DNA of 54,991 nucleotides, from assembly GCA_045650025.1 (NCBI GenBank), contig JAZRQR010000067.1:1-54991 (forward strand). Direction: 5' to 3'. Below the pieces are notes generated by a model that was not told the DNA's origin, did not search any database, and saw nothing but the letters and a program-made list of their open reading frames with translations. Positions 45,065 through 52,829 of this stretch are shown piece by piece. The stretch's first letter is position 1, and the number at the start of each line of letters is the position of its first letter. A program made the translations under genes and the position numbers. Source of the DNA: Eubacteriales bacterium (GTDB lineage Bacteria > Bacillota > Clostridia > Oscillospirales > CAG-272).

Positions 45065-45139
45065 GGCCCGTTGGTCAAGCGGTCAAGACGCTAGCCTCTC
45101 ACGCTGGAAACATGGGTTCGATTCCCGTACGGGTCACCA
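45065..45139 (+). tRNA. tRNA-Glu (anticodon CTC)
   Basis: Cloverleaf: acceptor GGCCCGT/ACGGGTC, D-arm GTC/GAC, anticodon arm CTAGC-CTCTCAC-GCTGG, T-arm ATGGG-TTCGATT-CCCGT, encoded CCA. Confidence 0.97.
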
Positions 45140-45180
45140 AAAAAAGAACAGGAGCACAGAAGTGCTCCTGTTCTTTTTTT
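45140..45180 (+). terminator. Intrinsic terminator after tRNA-Glu
   Basis: AAGAACAGGAGCAC-AGAA-GTGCTCCTGTTCTT followed by a T-tract. Confidence 0.8.
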
Positions 45181-45669
45181 GCCGACCCGACGCGAACCCA
45201 TTTCGTGCGCAACGCGCACGATCGGGTTCGCATTTGCCGCGAAGCCGTCGGAAAGCGACTCGCGCAGCGAGGCATTTTCCAGCGGCAAGCGTGCAAATAT
45301 TCGCCGTAGGCGAAATTCCCGTGCTTTTTGTGTTGCTGCCCCATACGAGGAATCTCACCCGGCGAGTCGAGCCGTAGGCTCGCCTCGCTGGGTTCGCATT
45401 CGCCGCTCGTAGATCGGAGAGCGACTCGCGCAGCGAGGCATTCTCCAGGCGGAGAGCGCGCGAATTCTCGCCAACGGCGAGATTCCCGTGTTTATTTGGC
45501 AGGCACCTCGAATGAGGTGCCTGTTCTTTTTCTGTCGACCCGACGCGAACCCATTTCGTGCGCAAAGCGCACGATTGGGTTCGCATTTGCCGCGAAGCCG
45601 TCTGGGAGCTTGCTCACAAGCGGCAAGCGTTCAAATATTCGCCGTAGGCGAAATTCCCGTACGGGTCAC
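45181..45669 (+). repeat. Tandem array of three structured units, each a tRNA T-arm split by a multi-hairpin insert, ending in a 17-bp duplicate of the tRNA 3' end
   Basis: GGGTTCG-[insert]-ATTCCCGT at 45224-45322, 45390-45489 and 45577-45660. ATTCCCGTACGGGTCAC at 45653-45669 equals 45121-45137. Confidence 0.85.
45500..45531 (+). terminator. Terminator-like hairpin inside the repeat array
   Basis: CAGGCACCTC-GAAT-GAGGTGCCTG followed by TTCTTTTT. Same 3' flank as the post-tRNA terminator. Confidence 0.65.
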
Positions 45670-45762
45670 GGCAGGGACAAGGTTGCTTCCCACAGAATAA
45701 AATCCACACTCCACGGGAGCCCTCGCTCCCCTTTTTCTTTCACATTTTTTACAAAATCCCGC

Positions 45763-45850: not shown

Positions 45851-48800
45851 ATGATTTACGAAAAGAACACAAAGCAACCCAAGCTGGATAAAGCCCTTTT
45901 CCAAAACCCGACTGCGGAATACCGCGGCACGCCATTCTGGGCATGGAACTGCGAGCTGGAAAAGGACGAGCTACTGCGCCAGATCGACATTTTTAAACAG
46001 ATGGGTCTGGGCGGCTTCCATATGCATTGCCGTGCAGGCATGTCCACCACATATCTTTCGGACGAATTTATGGACTTGGTCAAGGCGTGCACCGATCACG
46101 CCGAGAAAAACGAGATGCTTTCCTGGCTGTATGACGAGGACAAGTGGCCCTCCGGCTTTGCAGGCGGCTACGTGACCAAGAACCCCGCCTTCCGCCAAAG
46201 ATTCCTTGCCTTTACCTGCAATCCCGGCTACGTTACAACCGAGCACTCGGTTTTGATTGGCAAATTTGACGTGGTGCTGGGCAAGGACAAGTGCTTGAAA
46301 TCCTACCGCAAGGTGCAGGACGGTGACCCCATTGAGGGCACACTGTGGACGGTATGGCGTGAGATCTCCGGCAACTCCCCTTGGTACAACAACCAATCCT
46401 ACGTAGACACGCTCAATAAGGCTGCCATTGAAAAGTTTATTGAAGTGACGCACGAGCGTTACTACCAAGCCGTTGGCGACCGCTTTGGCACAGTAGTGCC
46501 CGCCATCTTTACCGACGAGCCGCAGTTCATGCGCAAGGGCACGCTTGCCTTTGCCGACAGCAAGCAGACCGTGCACCTGCCCTGGACTGATGACCTGGAG
46601 GACACCTTCCGCGCGGCATACGGTGAATCGCTGGTGGATCACTTGCCCGAGCTGCTGTGGGATCTGCCGGGCGGCGAGGTTTCCCTGACCCGCTACCACT
46701 ACCACGACCACGTTTCCGACCGCTTTGCCAAGGCGTTTGCCGACACCTGCGGCGACTGGTGTGACGCGCACGGCATTGCGCTGACCGGCCACATGATGGA
46801 AGAACCCACGTTGCACTCGCAGACCGCCGCCATTGGCGACTGCATGCGCTCCTACCGCGGCTTTGGCATTCCCGGTATTGATATGCTTTGCGCATCCTTT
46901 GAGTTCACCACCGCCAAGCAGTGTCAATCCGCCGTACACCAATACGGCAAGCCCGGCATGATGAGCGAGCTTTACGGTGTGACCGGCTGGGATTTCGACT
47001 TCCGCGGCCACAAGCTGCACGGTGACTGGCAGGCAGCACTGGGCGTGACCGTGCGTGTCCACCACCTTTCCTGGGTCTCCATGAAGGGCACGGCAAAGCG
47101 CGACTACCCCGCATCCATGTCCTATCAGTCCTCCTGGTACAAGCAGTACGCATACGTGGAGGATCACTTTGGCAGAGTGAACACCGCGCTTACCCGCGGC
47201 ACGCCGCTTGTTAAGGTGGGCGTGGTGCATCCCGTAGAGAGCTATTGGCTGCATTGGGGCCCCAACGAGCAGACCCAGCTGATCCGCGACAAGCTGGACG
47301 GCAACTTTATGAACGTGACCGACTGGCTGCTGCGCGGCAACATTGACTTCAACTACATCTGCGAATCCACCCTGCCCGATCTGTGTCCCGCAGGCGGCGC
47401 TCCCCTGCAGGTAGGCAAGATGGCTTACGACGTGGTCATCGTGCCCGAATGCGAGACGCTGCGCTCGACCACGCTGGATCGCCTGGAGGCATTCCTGGAC
47501 GCAGGCGGCAAGCTGGTATTTATGGGAGACGCGCCCAAGTACGAGGACGCCAAGACCTCGGAACGCGGCAAGGCACTCTTTGCACGCGCAAAGCAGATCG
47601 CTTTCTCGCGCGGCGCGCTGCTGGAAGAGCTGTACGACGACCGCACGGTGGAGATCCGCGAGTTTTCGGGTGCTTACACCACCAACCTGATCCACCAGAT
47701 CAGACGTGATACCGACGGTCTTTGGCTGTTTATCTCGCACGCAAACGAGCCCTACAACAAGCATATTTCCCGCTCGCAGGGCATTCACGTTTACGTCAAG
47801 GGCAAATACAAGGCGCAGCTGTGGGATACCATCACGGGCGAGATCAAGCCTGTGCGCTACAGCAACCGCTCGGGCGGCAAGACGCACATCATTATGAATC
47901 TGCACGATTACGACTCCGCGTTGCTTTATCTGGAGGACACCGACGAGGACGCAGGCTACGAGCCCGAGGCTGCCGCTGCACCCATGCCCATTGGCATTCA
48001 GCGCATGACTGTTGGCTATGATGCCTGGGCGGAGCAAAACGCAGCACCCGATCCCGTTGCCAACATTCCCTACACCGTGCCCTACTCGCTCTCCGAGCCC
48101 AACGCCCTGCTGCTTGACATGGCGAAATACGCGCTGGATGACGAGCCGCTCTCGGCTACCGAGGAGATTTTGCGCATTGACGCCGCCGTGCGCCGCCGTC
48201 TCGGCTTCCCTGCCGGCAAGGCACAGCCCTGGGTCATTCCCGCAAAGCCCGCAGAGCATACCGTGACGCTGGAATACACCATCTACAGCGAAATTGATTA
48301 CGCGAACCCCTACCTTGCGCTGGAGGACGCGGATATTGCCACCATCCTCTGGAACGGCTCACCCGTCAAAGCACAGCCCGAGGGCTATTACGTGGATAAA
48401 TCCATTCAAAAGGTGGCGCTTCCCGCACTTTGCAAGGGCGAGAACGTGCTGCGCGTGACCATTCCGTTTGCAGAGCGCTCCAATTGCGAGGCAATGTACC
48501 TGCTGGGTGCGTTTGGCGTGCGCGTGACCGGCAAGCTGTTGACCGTGACCGCCCTGCCCGAAACGCTCGGATTCTCCGATCTGACCTACCAGGGTCTGCC
48601 CTTCTACGGCGGCGAGGTCACCTATAAGATCCCCGTTTCCTGCGATACGGACTGGAACGCCGTGATCAAGGTGCCGCACTTTGACGCCGTGGTCAACTCG
48701 GTAGAGGTGGACGGCGAGCAACGCGCCGTGGTAGCTTACCCGCCTTACGTTGCCGATCTTGGCACACTATGCGCAGGCGCACACACCATTGGCCTGACTA

Positions 48801-48964
48801 CCTACATCTCGCGCCGCAACTGCTTTGGAGACGTGCACAACGCCGACGAAAAGCACCGCTGGCAGGGGCCTGTCGCTTGGGTAACCTCGGGGGATGCCTG
48901 GACATACGAATACCGTCTGCGCCGCACCGGTATTCTCACCACACCCGAGATCTATAGAAAGTAA
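45851..48964 (+). CDS. Glycoside hydrolase, GH106 (alpha-L-rhamnosidase)-like, cytoplasmic
   Basis: 1037 aa, no signal peptide. Motifs RGTPFWAWN, WLYDEDKWPSGFAGG, IFTDEPQ, PGIDML, MSELYG, AKRDYP. Confidence 0.8.
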   Translation: MIYEKNTKQPKLDKALFQNPTAEYRGTPFWAWNCELEKDELLRQIDIFKQMGLGGFHMHCRAGMSTTYLSDEFMDLVKACTDHAEKNEMLSWLYDEDKWPSGFAGGYVTKNPAFRQRFLAFTCNPGYVTTEHSVLIGKFDVVLGKDKCLKSYRKVQDGDPIEGTLWTVWREISGNSPWYNNQSYVDTLNKAAIEKFIEVTHERYYQAVGDRFGTVVPAIFTDEPQFMRKGTLAFADSKQTVHLPWTDDLEDTFRAAYGESLVDHLPELLWDLPGGEVSLTRYHYHDHVSDRFAKAFADTCGDWCDAHGIALTGHMMEEPTLHSQTAAIGDCMRSYRGFGIPGIDMLCASFEFTTAKQCQSAVHQYGKPGMMSELYGVTGWDFDFRGHKLHGDWQAALGVTVRVHHLSWVSMKGTAKRDYPASMSYQSSWYKQYAYVEDHFGRVNTALTRGTPLVKVGVVHPVESYWLHWGPNEQTQLIRDKLDGNFMNVTDWLLRGNIDFNYICESTLPDLCPAGGAPLQVGKMAYDVVIVPECETLRSTTLDRLEAFLDAGGKLVFMGDAPKYEDAKTSERGKALFARAKQIAFSRGALLEELYDDRTVEIREFSGAYTTNLIHQIRRDTDGLWLFISHANEPYNKHISRSQGIHVYVKGKYKAQLWDTITGEIKPVRYSNRSGGKTHIIMNLHDYDSALLYLEDTDEDAGYEPEAAAAPMPIGIQRMTVGYDAWAEQNAAPDPVANIPYTVPYSLSEPNALLLDMAKYALDDEPLSATEEILRIDAAVRRRLGFPAGKAQPWVIPAKPAEHTVTLEYTIYSEIDYANPYLALEDADIATILWNGSPVKAQPEGYYVDKSIQKVALPALCKGENVLRVTIPFAERSNCEAMYLLGAFGVRVTGKLLTVTALPETLGFSDLTYQGLPFYGGEVTYKIPVSCDTDWNAVIKVPHFDAVVNSVEVDGEQRAVVAYPPYVADLGTLCAGAHTIGLTTYISRRNCFGDVHNADEKHRWQGPVAWVTSGDAWTYEYRLRRTGILTTPEIYRK

Positions 48965-49136: not shown

Positions 49137-52100
49137 ATGAAAAAATCACTGATCACCGCTCTGTCGATTTTGCTGCTGTGCTCCATGCTGCTCGGTACGC
49201 TGGCTGCATGCAAGGACAGACCGCAGGACGACCCTGAGCAATCCACCCAGGACGAGACCACCGCGCCCGAGGACGAAAAGGCTCCCGTACGCGAATCCAT
49301 TCTGACCGGTGCTTATGCCGATCTGGTGGAAAACGCAAAGTGGTTGGAAAACGGCGTGAACGCCTACTTTACCAACTCCGTGCGCAGCGCGTACGCCATC
49401 GAAAACCAAAGCATGAAGCTCTACTACAACTTTAACCCCGAGCAGCCGCAGCTGGTCACCTCGCTGACCACGCCCGGCGGTAAGGCATATCTGAGTGACA
49501 CCATGGACGTTTACGTCAAGATGGAAGACGGCAGCACCTACTATGCGTCCGGCAGCTCCGCCCCCGGAACCGCCAACATTTACCGTCTTGGCTATTACTA
49601 CTACGACGTGCATCTTGCCGACCAGAACTTTATCAATTCGGTCAAGGTGACCAAGGATCGCACGCTTAACCTTTCGGGCTTGAAGAAGGGACACGATATG
49701 ACCGATCCCGTCGTGACCGACGGCATCCTCACCTCCACCATTCTCAGCTCCGCAGACGCGTATATCTACGGTAACCTTAAGTTCAATACCAACGAAGCGG
49801 ATAATCTGCAGGTGACCATGCGTACCACCGGCGTTTCCGAGATCCAGCTGTACCTCAAGATCGGCGCAGACGAATACTCCGACGCACGCTGGGTCAGAGC
49901 CGCTGTGACAAACGACGGTGACTGGCACACCTACACCTTCCCGCTCAATAATTCCACCGTGACCGATTATTCCGGCATCGTCAACGCCATCCGCCTTGAC
50001 TTCGTTGGTGCTTCCGGTCACCAGATCGAGATCAAGGAAATCAAGGTCAACAAGACCCAGACCGATAACGCGCCTCCCCTTTATCTGGACAGAACCCTGC
50101 ACGTATATTCCGACAAGCTTAATCACGTTGTCCGCATTTGTGCAGAATCCGACACCGACGGCATTGCCGAGATCGGTCAGATCACCGAGCTGGCAGCCGA
50201 TACCGTTAACGCACTGATCGTCAAGGACGCAAACGGCGAGCACACCACGCTGGACGGCGTGGATTGGGCAACTGCCGAGTATATTGCCTTTGACATCCAG
50301 AACGTAGGCGTATTCGGTTACATTCTGCTCAAGGATGCTTCCAGCGGCAGCATGACCGTTACCCTGGAGGATGGCAAGTACAAGATCGTACAGTTCACCA
50401 CTCCCAAGGACGGCACCATTCTCGCGCCCGTCAACAGCACCGCTAACGATTTCTACATGGGTCAGCGCATCTACACCGACCTGAACCATGATTTTGAAGC
50501 ATTCCGCAAGGCAGCATACGAGGAGCGCAATCCCCTCGCTCCCGAGAACATCAAGGTTGACGCCAAGGTAGCACCTCTTGCTTCCTACGTTGGCTACAAC
50601 GCCATTCGCGGCGCATACGAGTTCCACATGGAGGCGCAGAGCAGCTTTAACGTGCCCTACTACGAATCCTGGAACAAGCACTACAACATGGCATTTGAAA
50701 TTACGGGCGATGACCGTGACCGCAACATCTACGTGATGACCTATGCACACGGCACCTGCATTGAAAGCGGCGTGCTGCTGGGCGAGAGTGACATGCTGCT
50801 GCCCGTTTCGCTGGAGGTTTGTAAGAACTTCACCCACGAAAAGGAAGAGCCCCTTTTCGACTGCGGTGACGACGCATATAGCGAGACTTACTTCCCCATG
50901 ACCCTTAAGGCAGGTAAAACCGAGCGCTACACCGTTCTGAACCTGTATCAGAACTGGGGTAACTTCCCGCTCAAGCAGATCTCCTCGATCCAGTTCTTCT
51001 CCCCCTACTATCACCTTTCTACCGGTGTCAGCGAATCCAACTGCATCGCTCCCTATTACGTTTACAATAAGGACCTTTACACGCTGCCCGACCACCGCGC
51101 TATGTCCGCTCCCTTGTGGAGTGAGATGGCAAATCCCATCAACGGTAAGCAGCCCCAGCATACCAACGGCGGTCAGCACTACTGGCTGCAGTACACTACC
51201 TCCGACGGTCAGTACTACGCCTCGGATAATATGCAAAACATCATCAACTCCTACGGCCCGACCTACGCTGACATTGATATGACCTACCTTTCCGACGACG
51301 GCAACATCAAGGTCACTTACAACCACATGGAAATGCCGCAGACCGATGAAAACCGCACCTACTATCAGATCAGCTACGAGGTGCTGGGCGACGTTTCGAT
51401 CAAAGACTTCAAGCGCGACTTTTCCTTCTACTCGGTGCGCGGTCTGAGCGGTGACTACGGACTCATCGGCTATCTGGATGCAAGTAACAATTCCGTTATG
51501 ACCAACAACGTAGCCGACGGCAATACCGCCTACTACACGCTTGGCAACACGTTCCCCTACTTTGATATGTGTCAGATGATCGCAGGCACCGTCAACGACT
51601 ACGTTAACGTTTCTATGATCATTGCAGATGCGCAGTTCACCATTAACGGTCAAAAGGTCAACGCCCCCTTCGTAGTCAAGAACGAATACCTGGCAGCTTA
51701 CCTGACGCTGGATCTTGGCGAGGTTACCTTGAAGAAGGGTGACACCTTTACCATCAACGCAATCATCATGCCTTGGGGCTCTCAGGAGACCGACTACAAG
51801 GCAAAGCATCCCGACCAGAACGTACTGGACGTTCGCCAGAACTCGATCATTGACCCCTTGAAGGTTGACGTGGCAGTTGGCGAAAACATCAGCTCGATCT
51901 TCCTGCCCCAGATCAAGGCGCAGAACGATACCGCAGAATTCACGCTCAGCGGCGGTGAAAACAACATTTCCCTGCGCGTATACGGCTTCTCCACCCTCAC
52001 CGTTCCCAAGATCTACGAAAAGATCAACGGCGAATGGGTCGAATACAAGGTCAACTCGATGGGTAACCCCGATGATCGCGGCTACCAGCACTACTACGAC

Positions 52101-52829
52101 GGCTACATGGTACATTACGACGGTGACGGCACCTTCTCTTACTCCTTCGTCGTCAACATGACCGATAAGGCACGCACCTTTAAGGTAGAGCTTGACAAGG
52201 AATTTAACGGCTGGCCCGCAGATCCCGATCCCTCCACCGCGCTGCCCCCCGAGCCTGAGCACCCCCTCAACCTTTACTTCACTCCCGCAGACCTGGTAGC
52301 ACAGAATGCAACCGCTGCAGGCTTTGGCAGCATGGAAGTTTCCGCTGATGGCTCTTACCTGCGCCTGACCGGTAACGGTGAAGCAGGCGAGGCTTACTTC
52401 ACGGTATTTACTGGTAACAGCGAGGTCACCGGTCAGTACGCGGTTGTTCGCTACCGTACCAGCACCGCAGACGAATCCAAGTTTGGCAACATTGAGGTGT
52501 TCTCCGGCACGACTACCTCCGCTCCTACCGGTCAGAATGACTACGCGTTTACGCCCGGTATCATTGAGGACGGTGAATGGCACGTTATGGTATTTGACCT
52601 GGCAGCCTTCAACCTCGCTTCCTTCACCCCCGCAGCCGATGGCACCTACACCGCGCGCTTCCTGCGCCTGGATGCCCTTGGCAAGGTAACCGAGCCTACC
52701 ACCTACATGGACATCGCTTACGTTGGCTTCTCCGAATCTCTGGACGAGATCAAGGAGATCAACCAGGATATTGACAGCATCCAGCTGGCAACCGGCGTTG
52801 GTAAGGTAGAGCTGATTCCCACCAAATAA
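49137..52829 (+). CDS. Large hypothetical lipoprotein with two CBM-like modules
   Basis: 1230 aa, lipobox LAAC, GAGG RBS, beta-rich and aromatic-rich. Two DGxWH...RLD modules. No catalytic motif I can name. Confidence 0.85.
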   Translation: MKKSLITALSILLLCSMLLGTLAACKDRPQDDPEQSTQDETTAPEDEKAPVRESILTGAYADLVENAKWLENGVNAYFTNSVRSAYAIENQSMKLYYNFNPEQPQLVTSLTTPGGKAYLSDTMDVYVKMEDGSTYYASGSSAPGTANIYRLGYYYYDVHLADQNFINSVKVTKDRTLNLSGLKKGHDMTDPVVTDGILTSTILSSADAYIYGNLKFNTNEADNLQVTMRTTGVSEIQLYLKIGADEYSDARWVRAAVTNDGDWHTYTFPLNNSTVTDYSGIVNAIRLDFVGASGHQIEIKEIKVNKTQTDNAPPLYLDRTLHVYSDKLNHVVRICAESDTDGIAEIGQITELAADTVNALIVKDANGEHTTLDGVDWATAEYIAFDIQNVGVFGYILLKDASSGSMTVTLEDGKYKIVQFTTPKDGTILAPVNSTANDFYMGQRIYTDLNHDFEAFRKAAYEERNPLAPENIKVDAKVAPLASYVGYNAIRGAYEFHMEAQSSFNVPYYESWNKHYNMAFEITGDDRDRNIYVMTYAHGTCIESGVLLGESDMLLPVSLEVCKNFTHEKEEPLFDCGDDAYSETYFPMTLKAGKTERYTVLNLYQNWGNFPLKQISSIQFFSPYYHLSTGVSESNCIAPYYVYNKDLYTLPDHRAMSAPLWSEMANPINGKQPQHTNGGQHYWLQYTTSDGQYYASDNMQNIINSYGPTYADIDMTYLSDDGNIKVTYNHMEMPQTDENRTYYQISYEVLGDVSIKDFKRDFSFYSVRGLSGDYGLIGYLDASNNSVMTNNVADGNTAYYTLGNTFPYFDMCQMIAGTVNDYVNVSMIIADAQFTINGQKVNAPFVVKNEYLAAYLTLDLGEVTLKKGDTFTINAIIMPWGSQETDYKAKHPDQNVLDVRQNSIIDPLKVDVAVGENISSIFLPQIKAQNDTAEFTLSGGENNISLRVYGFSTLTVPKIYEKINGEWVEYKVNSMGNPDDRGYQHYYDGYMVHYDGDGTFSYSFVVNMTDKARTFKVELDKEFNGWPADPDPSTALPPEPEHPLNLYFTPADLVAQNATAAGFGSMEVSADGSYLRLTGNGEAGEAYFTVFTGNSEVTGQYAVVRYRTSTADESKFGNIEVFSGTTTSAPTGQNDYAFTPGIIEDGEWHVMVFDLAAFNLASFTPAADGTYTARFLRLDALGKVTEPTTYMDIAYVGFSESLDEIKEINQDIDSIQLATGVGKVELIPTK

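Follow-up and report, generated by a model that had tools for sequence, protein, structure and literature searches.

What are the short structured units that lie in tandem behind the tRNA-Glu(CTC) gene of an Eubacteriales bacterium (GTDB lineage Bacteria; Bacillota; Clostridia; Oscillospirales; CAG-272)? The gene lies in a contig of 54,991 nt (JAZRQR010000067.1 of assembly GCA_045650025.1, positions 1 to 54,991), which we analysed whole and refer to as the window. Behind the gene, the two halves of its T-arm recur three times, each time parted by an insert at the same position of the T-loop. We read the units as integrative modules without open reading frames (ORFs) that may exchange in the T-loop, possibly as a folded single strand, with a putative enzyme acting in trans. 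This is our leading explanation, but it is held tentatively, at slightly less than even weight. Modules of a common anatomy, each matched to its host gene, also follow other tRNA genes of the genome. They fold in a conserved manner, vary in tandem number and in presence between relatives, and belong to different families at one and the same site.

All features of the array lie on the + strand. The host gene, tRNA-Glu(CTC), occupies positions 45065–45139 (ARAGORN; Rfam RF00005, 61.1 bits), encodes its CCA, and has the T-arm ATGGG-TTCGATT-CCCGT, which in the sequence splits as GGGTTCG / ATTCCCGT. It runs into a terminator hairpin (T1, 45140–45182) made of an A-tract, a GC stem, and a T-tract. 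The T1 stem extends outward: the last 10 nt of the tRNA gene pair with bases just past the T-tract, giving an inverted repeat of 28 nt with 93% complementarity (I1, 45130–45157 / 45162–45189). Unit 1 opens with a 5′ segment (45183–45200). When it is aligned locally with the reverse-complemented tRNA 3′ end, GACCCG corresponds to the acceptor 3′ strand and CGCGAACCC to the T-stem 5′ strand plus TTCG, both in inverted orientation. The segment is followed by a hairpin, H1 (TCGTGCGC-AAC-GCGCACGA; 45203–45221; palindrome I3), which is paired in the minimum-energy fold, and by the left T-arm half GGGTTCG (45224–45230), whose fold partner is CGAACCC of the 5′ segment. The insert itself is an 84-nt core of a family that we call A (45231–45314; alignment A1; model R1, 106 bits), with a long irregular hairpin (P1–P4) and a small hairpin, P5. 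The right T-arm half, ATTCCCGT (45315–45322; repeat family D2), closes the unit and has no acceptor part.

Unit 2 has the same order of parts. Its 5′ segment, ACGAGGAATCTCACCC (45345–45360), is by sequence and fold a diverged reverse complement of the whole, uninterrupted T-arm, and pairs in the minimum-energy fold with AGAUUCCCGUG at the 3′ end of the unit. H1 (45361–45388; sequence and fold) is unlike the H1 of unit 1 in sequence. The left half GGGTTCG (45390–45396), an 85-nt family A core (45397–45481; R1, 124.9 bits), and the right half ATTCCCGT (45482–45489) complete the unit, which is 99.0% identical over 101 nt to a copy behind tRNA-Glu(TTC) on contig C90. A terminator (T2, 45498–45535; found by terminator scan and by comparison with locus L002) separates units 2 and 3. 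T2 has the same stem as the terminator of tRNA-Glu(TTC) on C90, and its loop reads as the reverse complement of the C90 loop, i.e., both Glu loci have terminator stems in common, with the loop inverted in one case.

In unit 3, the 5′ segment GACCCGACGCGAACCC (45537–45552) is 92% identical to that of unit 1 (repeat D1) and has CGGGTC at the 3′ end of the unit as its fold partner. H1 (45556–45574; palindrome I3, paired in the fold) and the left half GGGTTCG (45577–45583) precede a short, 69-nt variant of the family A core (45584–45652; R1, 54 bits), in which a shorter hairpin stands in place of the P3–P4 tip; cores of this type are also present at L025, L030, and L049. The right half continues into the acceptor 3′ strand, ATTCCCGTACGGGTCAC (45653–45669; repeat D5), and is an exact direct repeat of tRNA positions 58–74 (17 nt, 45121–45137 = 45653–45669). 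Across the array, the H1 sequence varies between unit types and the repeating unit measures about 140–190 bp. Each junction is present three times in the window. For the left one, GGTTCGCATTYGCCGC, chance would give 0.01 occurrences, and none of 100 shuffles reached three; for the right one, GGCGARATTCCCGT, the expectation is 0.02.

A first-pass annotation of the window had already placed the three recurrences of the T-arm halves and the 84-, 85-, and 69-nt inserts at exact coordinates, and its end hairpins (TTCGCC-GTA-GGCGAA and CTCGCC-AAC-GGCGAG) and its statement that no protein is encoded hold as well, since the units contain no credible ORF. Its description was correct for the split T-arm and the inserts, but it omitted the inverted copy of the tRNA 3′ end, the H1 hairpin behind that copy, the terminators, the covariation of the cores, and the pattern across the genome, and its estimate of about 170–350 bp for the element was too large.

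The plan recurs across the genome. In the genome of the window (G000), ARAGORN, run contig by contig, gives 44 tRNA and tmRNA genes, which we take as the host set. For 15 of the 44, an exact repeat of at least 9 nt of the gene's own 3′ part, from T-loop position 58, lies within 1.5 kb downstream. The first copy is 147–228 nt downstream in 14 of those 15 genes (514 nt for the three-unit array of the window). The fifteenth, Pro(GGG), differs, in that a 525-bp module lies beside an integrase-bearing island. In total, modules are found at 19 of the 44 genes, a count that adds family A at Gln-CTG and tmRNA and family B at Arg-ACG, Ala-GGC, and Val-CAC, and that takes in the majority of genes that stand last in a tRNA transcription unit and are followed by sufficient sequence. 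The common plan in all modules is a terminator, the reverse complement of the host 3′ end, a hairpin, a core, and a copy of the T-arm. All units run in the same orientation as their tRNA, four stand in tandem behind Arg-CCG, and several have CCA and their own terminator at the end. The 3′ part of the gene, over 9 to about 54 nt, makes up the direct repeat, and the inverted ends differ by host.

At least three core families are present among the modules of G000, each copy matching its own host gene. The family B core is a 9-bp stem, ATTTGCGCC/GGCGCAAAT, around a loop with GATACCCAAACG. In G000, the family B model matches at 13 places; at 12 a co-oriented tRNA stands in front, and the remaining one is at the start of a contig. 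Here the T-loop is whole but carries one extra base after TTC (GGTTC-T/A-GA..), which makes a loop of 8 nt. The 5′ segment of family B carries the complementary extra base together with the host-specific loop letters, and columns 28/144 and 37/135 change on both sides. Family C, found at Ser-TGA in G000 and at the tmRNA gene of two relatives (G013 and G009), keeps only the part from position 56/57 on. Further cores lie behind Leu, Tyr, Pro(TGG), Met, and Arg(CCT) genes. The split T-loop of the first-pass annotation is therefore a feature of family A only; the other families either have an unbroken T-loop with one base added or are missing the left half. Model R2, for family B, matches 0 of 150 other genomes in a sample of the order that holds no other members of the genus (g1). 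A 12-mer consisting of the T-loop plus one base matches 265 of 301 genomes (10 matches in G000 against 2 for the control); in the four genomes richest in it, a tRNA gene accompanies 1 of 30 loci, about 830 nt off and on the other strand, and the module plan is not shown outside the order.

The Pro(GGG) locus (C192:10132-15458) is an ordinary island with an att-flanked remnant in front. The tRNA gene is followed by the 525-bp module between exact 19-nt repeats of the tRNA 3′ end; the module contains three TGTTACACA repeats and recurs once more (six repeats in all). A gene for a 395-aa tyrosine integrase lies at C192:14271-15458.

Family A gives the clearest view of host matching. G000 holds six copies: the three of the window and one each behind tRNA-Glu(TTC), tRNA-Gln(CTG), and tmRNA. 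The Gln copy is flanked by AGGTTCG and TACCCTAGTGCCGCAG, and the tmRNA copy by GGGGTTCG and ACTGCCC. In G008, the flanks of the tmRNA copy are GGGGTTCA and ATTCCCCTC, in agreement with the T-loop variant of that genome. Cys, Pro(CGG), and Tyr genes are further hosts in relatives, so that the family A core serves at least seven different host genes. Copies of the insert thus do occur behind other tRNA genes and tmRNA, with the T-arm halves of their own host (Gln, tmRNA, Cys, Pro, and Tyr), as the idea of an element targeting tRNA genes had implied. Among the 31 copies of alignment A1 (below), TTCG stands directly 5′ of the core in 28, and the right flank follows the host. In the Gln, Pro, and Tyr copies, the 3′ half begins with TA, TTA, CA, or TAT, i.e., T-loop position 58 is not A, and in the Pro copies the 5′ segment is decayed.

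By blastn, family A is present in 15 of 15 other genomes of the genus, in 4 of the 21 from other genera of the family, and in 2 of 24 from other families, some of the matches outside the genus being weak. In an even sample of the order, model R1 finds copies in 3 of 150 other genomes, and all of them directly follow a tRNA gene and terminator. An exact-pattern scan of 185,579 species genomes gives 40 contigs with family A, whose record titles name uncultured Clostridia, Eubacteriales, and Oscillospiraceae from animal guts and, for one short contig, Elusimicrobiaceae. A co-oriented tRNA or tmRNA gene lies within about 700 nt upstream at 13 of the 40 loci, and most of the others have the match at a contig edge. 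Four internal loci without a tRNA gene were read: at L066 the tRNA gene is displaced by an inserted element, L068 and L084 are truncated units without a tRNA gene, and L059 lies behind a pseudo 3′ end and a terminator. In metagenome contigs, a tRNA gene is upstream in two of three family A matches. The same architecture in dozens of independent assemblies rules out an assembly artefact.

The family A core has a conserved fold. Alignment A1 comprises 31 copies from 16 genomes with a hand-drawn structure; it was drawn from 36 full-length family A matches, leaving out unit 3 of the window, L025, and L030:1908 (short cores), L019 (diverged 3′ end), and L009:1351 (5′-truncated). The structure consists of the T-stem, four nested helices that form one long hairpin, and a small end hairpin. 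Standard pairs make up 95.0% of 1021 cells, and 12 of 33 pairs change on both sides (68 cells). None of 500 column shuffles equals the observed values, although the aligned sequences are related and non-independent, so that the shuffle counts overstate significance. When the partners are slid by 1–3 columns as a control, pairing falls to 25–56%. Compensatory sets include ATTTGC/GCAAAT, ATTCGC/GCGAAT, ATATCC/GGATAT, and ATACCC/GGGTAT, as well as CTCGC/GCGAG against CTTGC/GCAAG. One G·U pair on the tRNA-sense strand is invariant, and a purine–purine position (columns 38/52) reads only A/G or G/A in 29 of 31 rows. The fold z-scores of units 1–3 of the window are −5.1, −5.7, and −6.5 on the + strand and −3.9, −4.6, and −6.3 on the − strand. 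Taken together, the covariation, the invariant G·U pair, and the z-scores indicate selection on a single-stranded form of the sense strand, either RNA or DNA. In the folds, the T-arm halves pair mostly with the inverted copy and not with each other. For this reason, and with position 58 not A in the Gln, Pro, and Tyr copies, the other proposal of the first-pass annotation, an RNA that presents a split T-arm, has become weak.

The occupancy of a single site varies between close relatives. We read the tmRNA gene in eight genomes of the genus (L128 and L130, which stop at contig ends, and L132 stand outside this count). Family A is present in four of them (G000, G008, G010, and, with two tandem copies, G004), family B in one (G012), and family C in two (G013 and G009). 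In G014 the site is empty, and the terminator leads straight into the promoter of the next gene. The tRNA-Glu(CTC) site holds three units in G000 and a single one in G005; G006 has at least one, of another subtype, the first unit being cut off by the end of the contig. The presence of family A, B, or C, or of no module, at the tmRNA site therefore favours mobile DNA over a conserved RNA gene, and the tandem and near-identical copies argue for the same. The first-pass suggestion of non-autonomous elements that accrete in tandem at tRNA T-loops has stood as to host matching, to unit numbers that differ between relatives, and to the existence of an empty site, but not as to its enzyme in trans, which our searches did not identify.

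The T-loop sequences of the tmRNA site give a second record of turnover. Among the tmRNA genes of the genus (L004, L126, L127, L129, L131, L133, L164, and L165), the T-loop variant is TTCGACT in G000 and TTCAATT in G004, G008, G009, G010, G012, G013, and G014. In G004, the tmRNA gene has AATT and the units have GACT. In G009, the working tmRNA gene and the inverted copy have AATT, and the distal copy has GACT with CCA and its own terminator; this is the pattern to be expected if the proximal 3′ end arrived with the module, and both genomes fit an exchange in the T-loop. These displaced copies with the other T-loop variant suggest that integrating elements rewrite the tmRNA 3′ end.

Larger insertions are seen near some units. 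In G010, a 16-kb insert parts the tmRNA gene from the family A unit (C51:190499-206780; L164 and L018). Its far junction retains only TCCACCA of the tmRNA end, suggesting that this island uses the extreme 3′ end of tmRNA as its site. At L008 (G014:C44) and L066, tRNA-Glu(CTC) does not adjoin its array; what stands there is the end of a protein-coding gene, with a degenerate ..TTCACCA and a terminator behind it. It looks as though a larger element has integrated between the tRNA gene and the array at these loci.

How might a module enter its site? In the mechanism that we propose, a module would begin with a replacement for the host 3′ end that reaches from about T-loop position 57/58 to the CCA. 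A terminator hairpin and then the same end in inverted orientation would follow, and after these the variable hairpin H1 and the conserved structured core. The last part would be TTC(G) preceded by a copied 5′ strand of the T-stem. The module would be joined into the host gene by exchanging strands in the T-loop. The host gene would stay whole, as the module would bring a replacement 3′ end and a terminator, and the old 3′ end would move behind the module as the direct repeat. The direct and inverted copies are complementary, and a single strand may thus fold, together with the terminator palindrome, so that the whole module becomes a near-rod whose stem would imitate, as a duplex, the T-arm and acceptor region of the gene. 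Where the exchange is presumed to occur, this rod would have one added base pair (family B) or a branching core (family A). The junction is always in the T-loop: family B has its extra base after TTC, family A has its core there, and family C runs from position 56/57 on. By analogy with integron attC and CTX phage attP(+), a trans-acting enzyme that reads the shape of the rod could serve many tRNA genes.

A bolder form of this proposal, drawn from the same analogy, is that recombination is guided by shape and not by sequence, so that a gene-less rod, folded from a single strand and mimicking the T-arm as a duplex, would enter the matching T-loop of a tRNA or tmRNA gene by means of one putative enzyme, encoded by the host or by a helper. 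We regard it as unlikely. If true, the modules would be the tRNA-gene counterpart of attC and CTX attP(+) and the smallest class of integrative elements known, and the movement of tmRNA T-loop variants between species would be explained.

Several observations weigh against reading the units as modules that exchange in the T-loop. If a module carries its own arms, the presence of one family at seven or more host genes with matching flanks is difficult to account for, and the proposal leaves the re-tailoring of those arms unexplained. The invariant G·U pair and the A·G/G·A swap at columns 38/52 are equally expected of a functional RNA. Some copies (L059, L068, and L084) have no intact tRNA gene nearby. 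The first terminator behind the tmRNA gene of G012 is homologous to the empty-site terminator of G014, and no terminator follows the module; insertion behind the terminator would account for this better than a T-loop exchange. In addition, phage and plasmid collections and viral contigs yielded no excised circle and no free, phage, or plasmid copy: the whole array has no blastn match in the phage and plasmid collections, and the family A core pattern matches 0 viral contigs.

The search for an enzyme weighs in the same direction. No enzyme was identified among the domain searches of G000, a genome that is 93% complete. Phage_integrase has six matches in G000. Four of the integrases were read, three of phage type on C66, C99, and C120, where no tRNA gene was found, and one Xer-like; a fifth lies in the Pro-GGG island. 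The C66 integrase, the only one whose distribution was checked, is present in 0 of 15 other genomes of the genus. The contig of the window (C67) has no match to Phage_integrase or to another recombinase, and the absence of an integrase or transposase noted in the first pass extends to the whole contig, on which none of the genome's tyrosine recombinase or Y1 transposase matches lies. Y1_Tnp finds two RAYT-like genes (REP-associated tyrosine transposases; REP, repetitive extragenic palindrome) in G000, each with its own repeats. These repeats are palindromes of the GGGGAC..GTCCCC type, unrelated to the units. Across 60 relatives, Y1_Tnp is found in 13 of 15 genomes of the genus and is common elsewhere, with no link to the presence of units. 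RVT_1 has 0 matches in G000, and IS110 DEDD and Cas12f/TnpB have only sub-threshold matches there, inside very long frames. Y2_Tnp also has 0 matches in G000, but its control matched nowhere either. The two Y1_Tnp proteins (C152:45830-46603 and C2:2702-3514) are about 250 aa long and have an extra C-terminal region. CCCCTGTTACAC motifs resembling the Y1 palindromes are also found in the Pro(GGG) module.

The main rival is that the units are structured non-coding RNAs, or cis-acting RNAs, made by read-through from the tRNA promoter, with a 3′ tail identical to that of the host tRNA that would be handled by tRNA processing or would let the units interact with the pathway of the host tRNA, and with a spread at the DNA level that is secondary (duplication or gene conversion). 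We consider this possible though on balance unlikely; it is also compatible with mobility. The strong covariation, the invariant G·U pair on the tRNA-sense strand, and the restriction of columns 38/52 to A/G or G/A are what an RNA would show, and the + strand folds slightly better than the − strand. The co-orientation of all units with the tRNA and the units that end in CCA and a terminator of their own point the same way, as do the two ends of unit 3, which can form an acceptor-like stem in the fold. Transcription is where this explanation meets difficulty: the promoter and terminator scan finds no sigma-70-like promoter on the + strand of the array, and every array has a strong terminator in front of it. 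Moreover, three unrelated cores or none occupy one tmRNA site within the genus, copy number varies, the T-loop has no A at position 58 in the Gln, Pro, and Tyr copies, and the Pro copies have a decayed 5′ segment. ARAGORN makes no call at the units. Rfam 15, searched with the window at the gathering threshold, with the array region at E ≤ 10, and with 15 unit loci at E ≤ 0.1, returns only tRNA, tmRNA, and hairpin look-alikes far below gathering scores, in line with the first-pass impression that no named family is present.

Alternatively, the units could be inert scars, namely islands or prophages that were deleted internally after repeated integration, leaving attL and attR with the arms of attP only. 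Ordinary islands do occupy such sites, as seen at Pro-GGG in G000, in the 16-kb tmRNA insert of G010, and in the insert between tRNA-Glu and array at L008/L066, and displaced 3′ fragments and remnants are described in parts of two reports on islands and related elements (PMC4383910; 10.1101/2020.12.28.424599). Scars would not, however, retain compensatory changes in five helices or a complementary extra base in both arms. The copies that we read contain no trace of an integrase gene, their sizes are uniform, and the same core is found at seven or more host genes. Scars are therefore improbable.

Could the mobile part be the 69–85-nt core only? It would then be a palindrome-associated transposable element (PATE) of the IS200/IS605 kind that inserts 3′ of TTCG in single-stranded T-arm-like hairpins, the tRNA-like surroundings being a separate matter. 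The TTCG left flank in 28 of 31 copies with a host-dependent right flank, the hairpins at both ends of the core, and the IS200-type Y1 transposases in some genomes of the genus would suit such an element. However, all six copies of G000 are in a module context and none lies at another TTCG in 2.6 Mb, the only Y1 genes of G000 are RAYT-like and go with other repeats, and the module plan is also that of families B and C, which lack such an insert. We judge this explanation very improbable. Least probable of all is that template switching at palindromes (terminator and H1) triplicated the tRNA 3′ end in direct–inverted–direct order, as a by-product of replication that involves neither an element nor a function: the order sense, hairpin, antisense, hairpin, sense, with hairpins at both turning points, would fit, but the conserved covarying cores are common to unrelated tRNA loci and families of bacteria, and H1 and the core are not derived from tRNA.

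If the units are integrative modules, they can be compared with several known systems. Integron attC sites and CTX phage attP(+) have inverted repeats that refold to a duplex site, with structure kept over sequence, and form arrays of units. Likewise, in the modules the T-arm copy has its pairing partner in the 5′ segment, down to the extra base and the loop letters specific to the host. The likeness is an analogy only, as the modules have no integron integrase context or dif-like site, their stem mimics the T-arm, and the extra base is paired and not extrahelical. PATEs of the IS200/IS605 group and REP/RAYT elements are small, hairpin-rich, and without ORFs, and IS200/IS605 elements have a fixed short left flank, which may be compared with the TTCG of family A. 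Unlike these, the modules are confined to the ends of tRNA genes and have host-specific flanks; the short left target is fixed, but there is no spread over many sites with a cognate TnpA, and the units do not match the repeats of the RAYT-like genes of G000, which are different. Nor are the modules classical miniature inverted-repeat transposable elements, as their inverted ends are host-specific and the direct repeat is the 3′ part of the gene. The cis-mobilizable elements (CIMEs) of the ICESt1 group are, like the modules, non-autonomous, flanked by att sites, thought to be mobilised in trans, and able to accrete in tandem. CIMEs are kilobase-sized deletion derivatives of a known integrative and conjugative element at one site, whereas the modules use many sites. 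We know of no parent element for the modules, and homology to one was not found in the phage and plasmid collections or in viral contigs. The modules also resemble tRNA-like RNAs (the tRNA-like domain of tmRNA, and mimics) in the acceptor-like pairing of the ends of unit 3 and in the tRNA 3′ tail, sometimes with CCA. They differ in that the units are not recognised by ARAGORN or Rfam, the T-loop consensus, including the U54–A58 pair, is lost across hosts, and the T-stem 5′ strand is mostly paired with the inverted copy.

The closest comparison is with the islands of tRNA genes. In the relevant sections of the Islander report, an island interrupts its gene and restores it, with a displaced 3′ fragment left over; an attP in the T-stem region, the commonest class, is recorded for 1836 of 3919 islands (PMC4383910). 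The modules likewise have an intact target gene, a cognate direct displaced 3′ fragment, a repeat that starts in the T-loop or T-stem, and tandem arrays, as those sections describe for islands (PMC4383910). They differ in measuring about 130–190 bp and not kilobases, in having no integrase between gene and fragment or any other gene, in occupying 19 of 44 genes, and in having a covarying hairpin core, an inverted copy of the 3′ end, and an extra T-loop base. According to the same sections, Islander requires an integrase gene and applies a length test (PMC4383910); these filters may discard such modules by design. Tycheposons of Prochlorococcus resemble the modules in using several tRNA genes, in their partial-tRNA flanks, in repeated integration at the same site, and in scattered partial-tRNA remnants, but, as far as parts of the report on them describe, they carry integrases and cargo, are kilobases long, and have partial tRNAs that are scars and not a conserved structured module (10.1101/2020.12.28.424599). 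The inverted copy is a novel feature with respect to known tRNA-gene islands. Full-text literature searches, which did not cover supplementary island lists, gave no description of such modules. The modules therefore look like an undescribed kind of miniature, ORF-less, structured tRNA-gene integrative element.

The modules rewrite the 3′ ends and terminators of most tRNA transcription units across a genus of uncultured gut bacteria. If they are mobile, integrative elements of about 150 bp would still find and repair tRNA genes, which would bear on the minimal needs of tRNA-gene targeting and point to an enzyme of broad tRNA-gene specificity, of interest for programmable integration. If they are RNAs instead, they would form a new multi-family class of tRNA-linked structured RNAs. 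In practice, island finders that require an integrase gene and a minimum length would miss the modules, and the modules break assemblies at tRNA genes, many copies being at contig ends.

Some smaller features accompany individual loci. L035 was considered as a chimeric unit with a Pro-like left flank and a Glu right flank; this was ruled out, and it has an H1 deletion instead. Runs of palindromic repeats with GATGATATAC-like motifs lie beside the units behind tRNA-Cys (L023, G009:C80) and tmRNA (L129, G009:C29), and at L023 a 91-aa ORF lies between the tRNA-Cys terminator and the unit. In the window, the terminator scan places a terminator-like hairpin (T3, 45715–45740, + strand) 3′ of the array, which precedes two long ORFs on the + strand, at 45851–48964 (1037 aa) and 49137–52829 (1230 aa).

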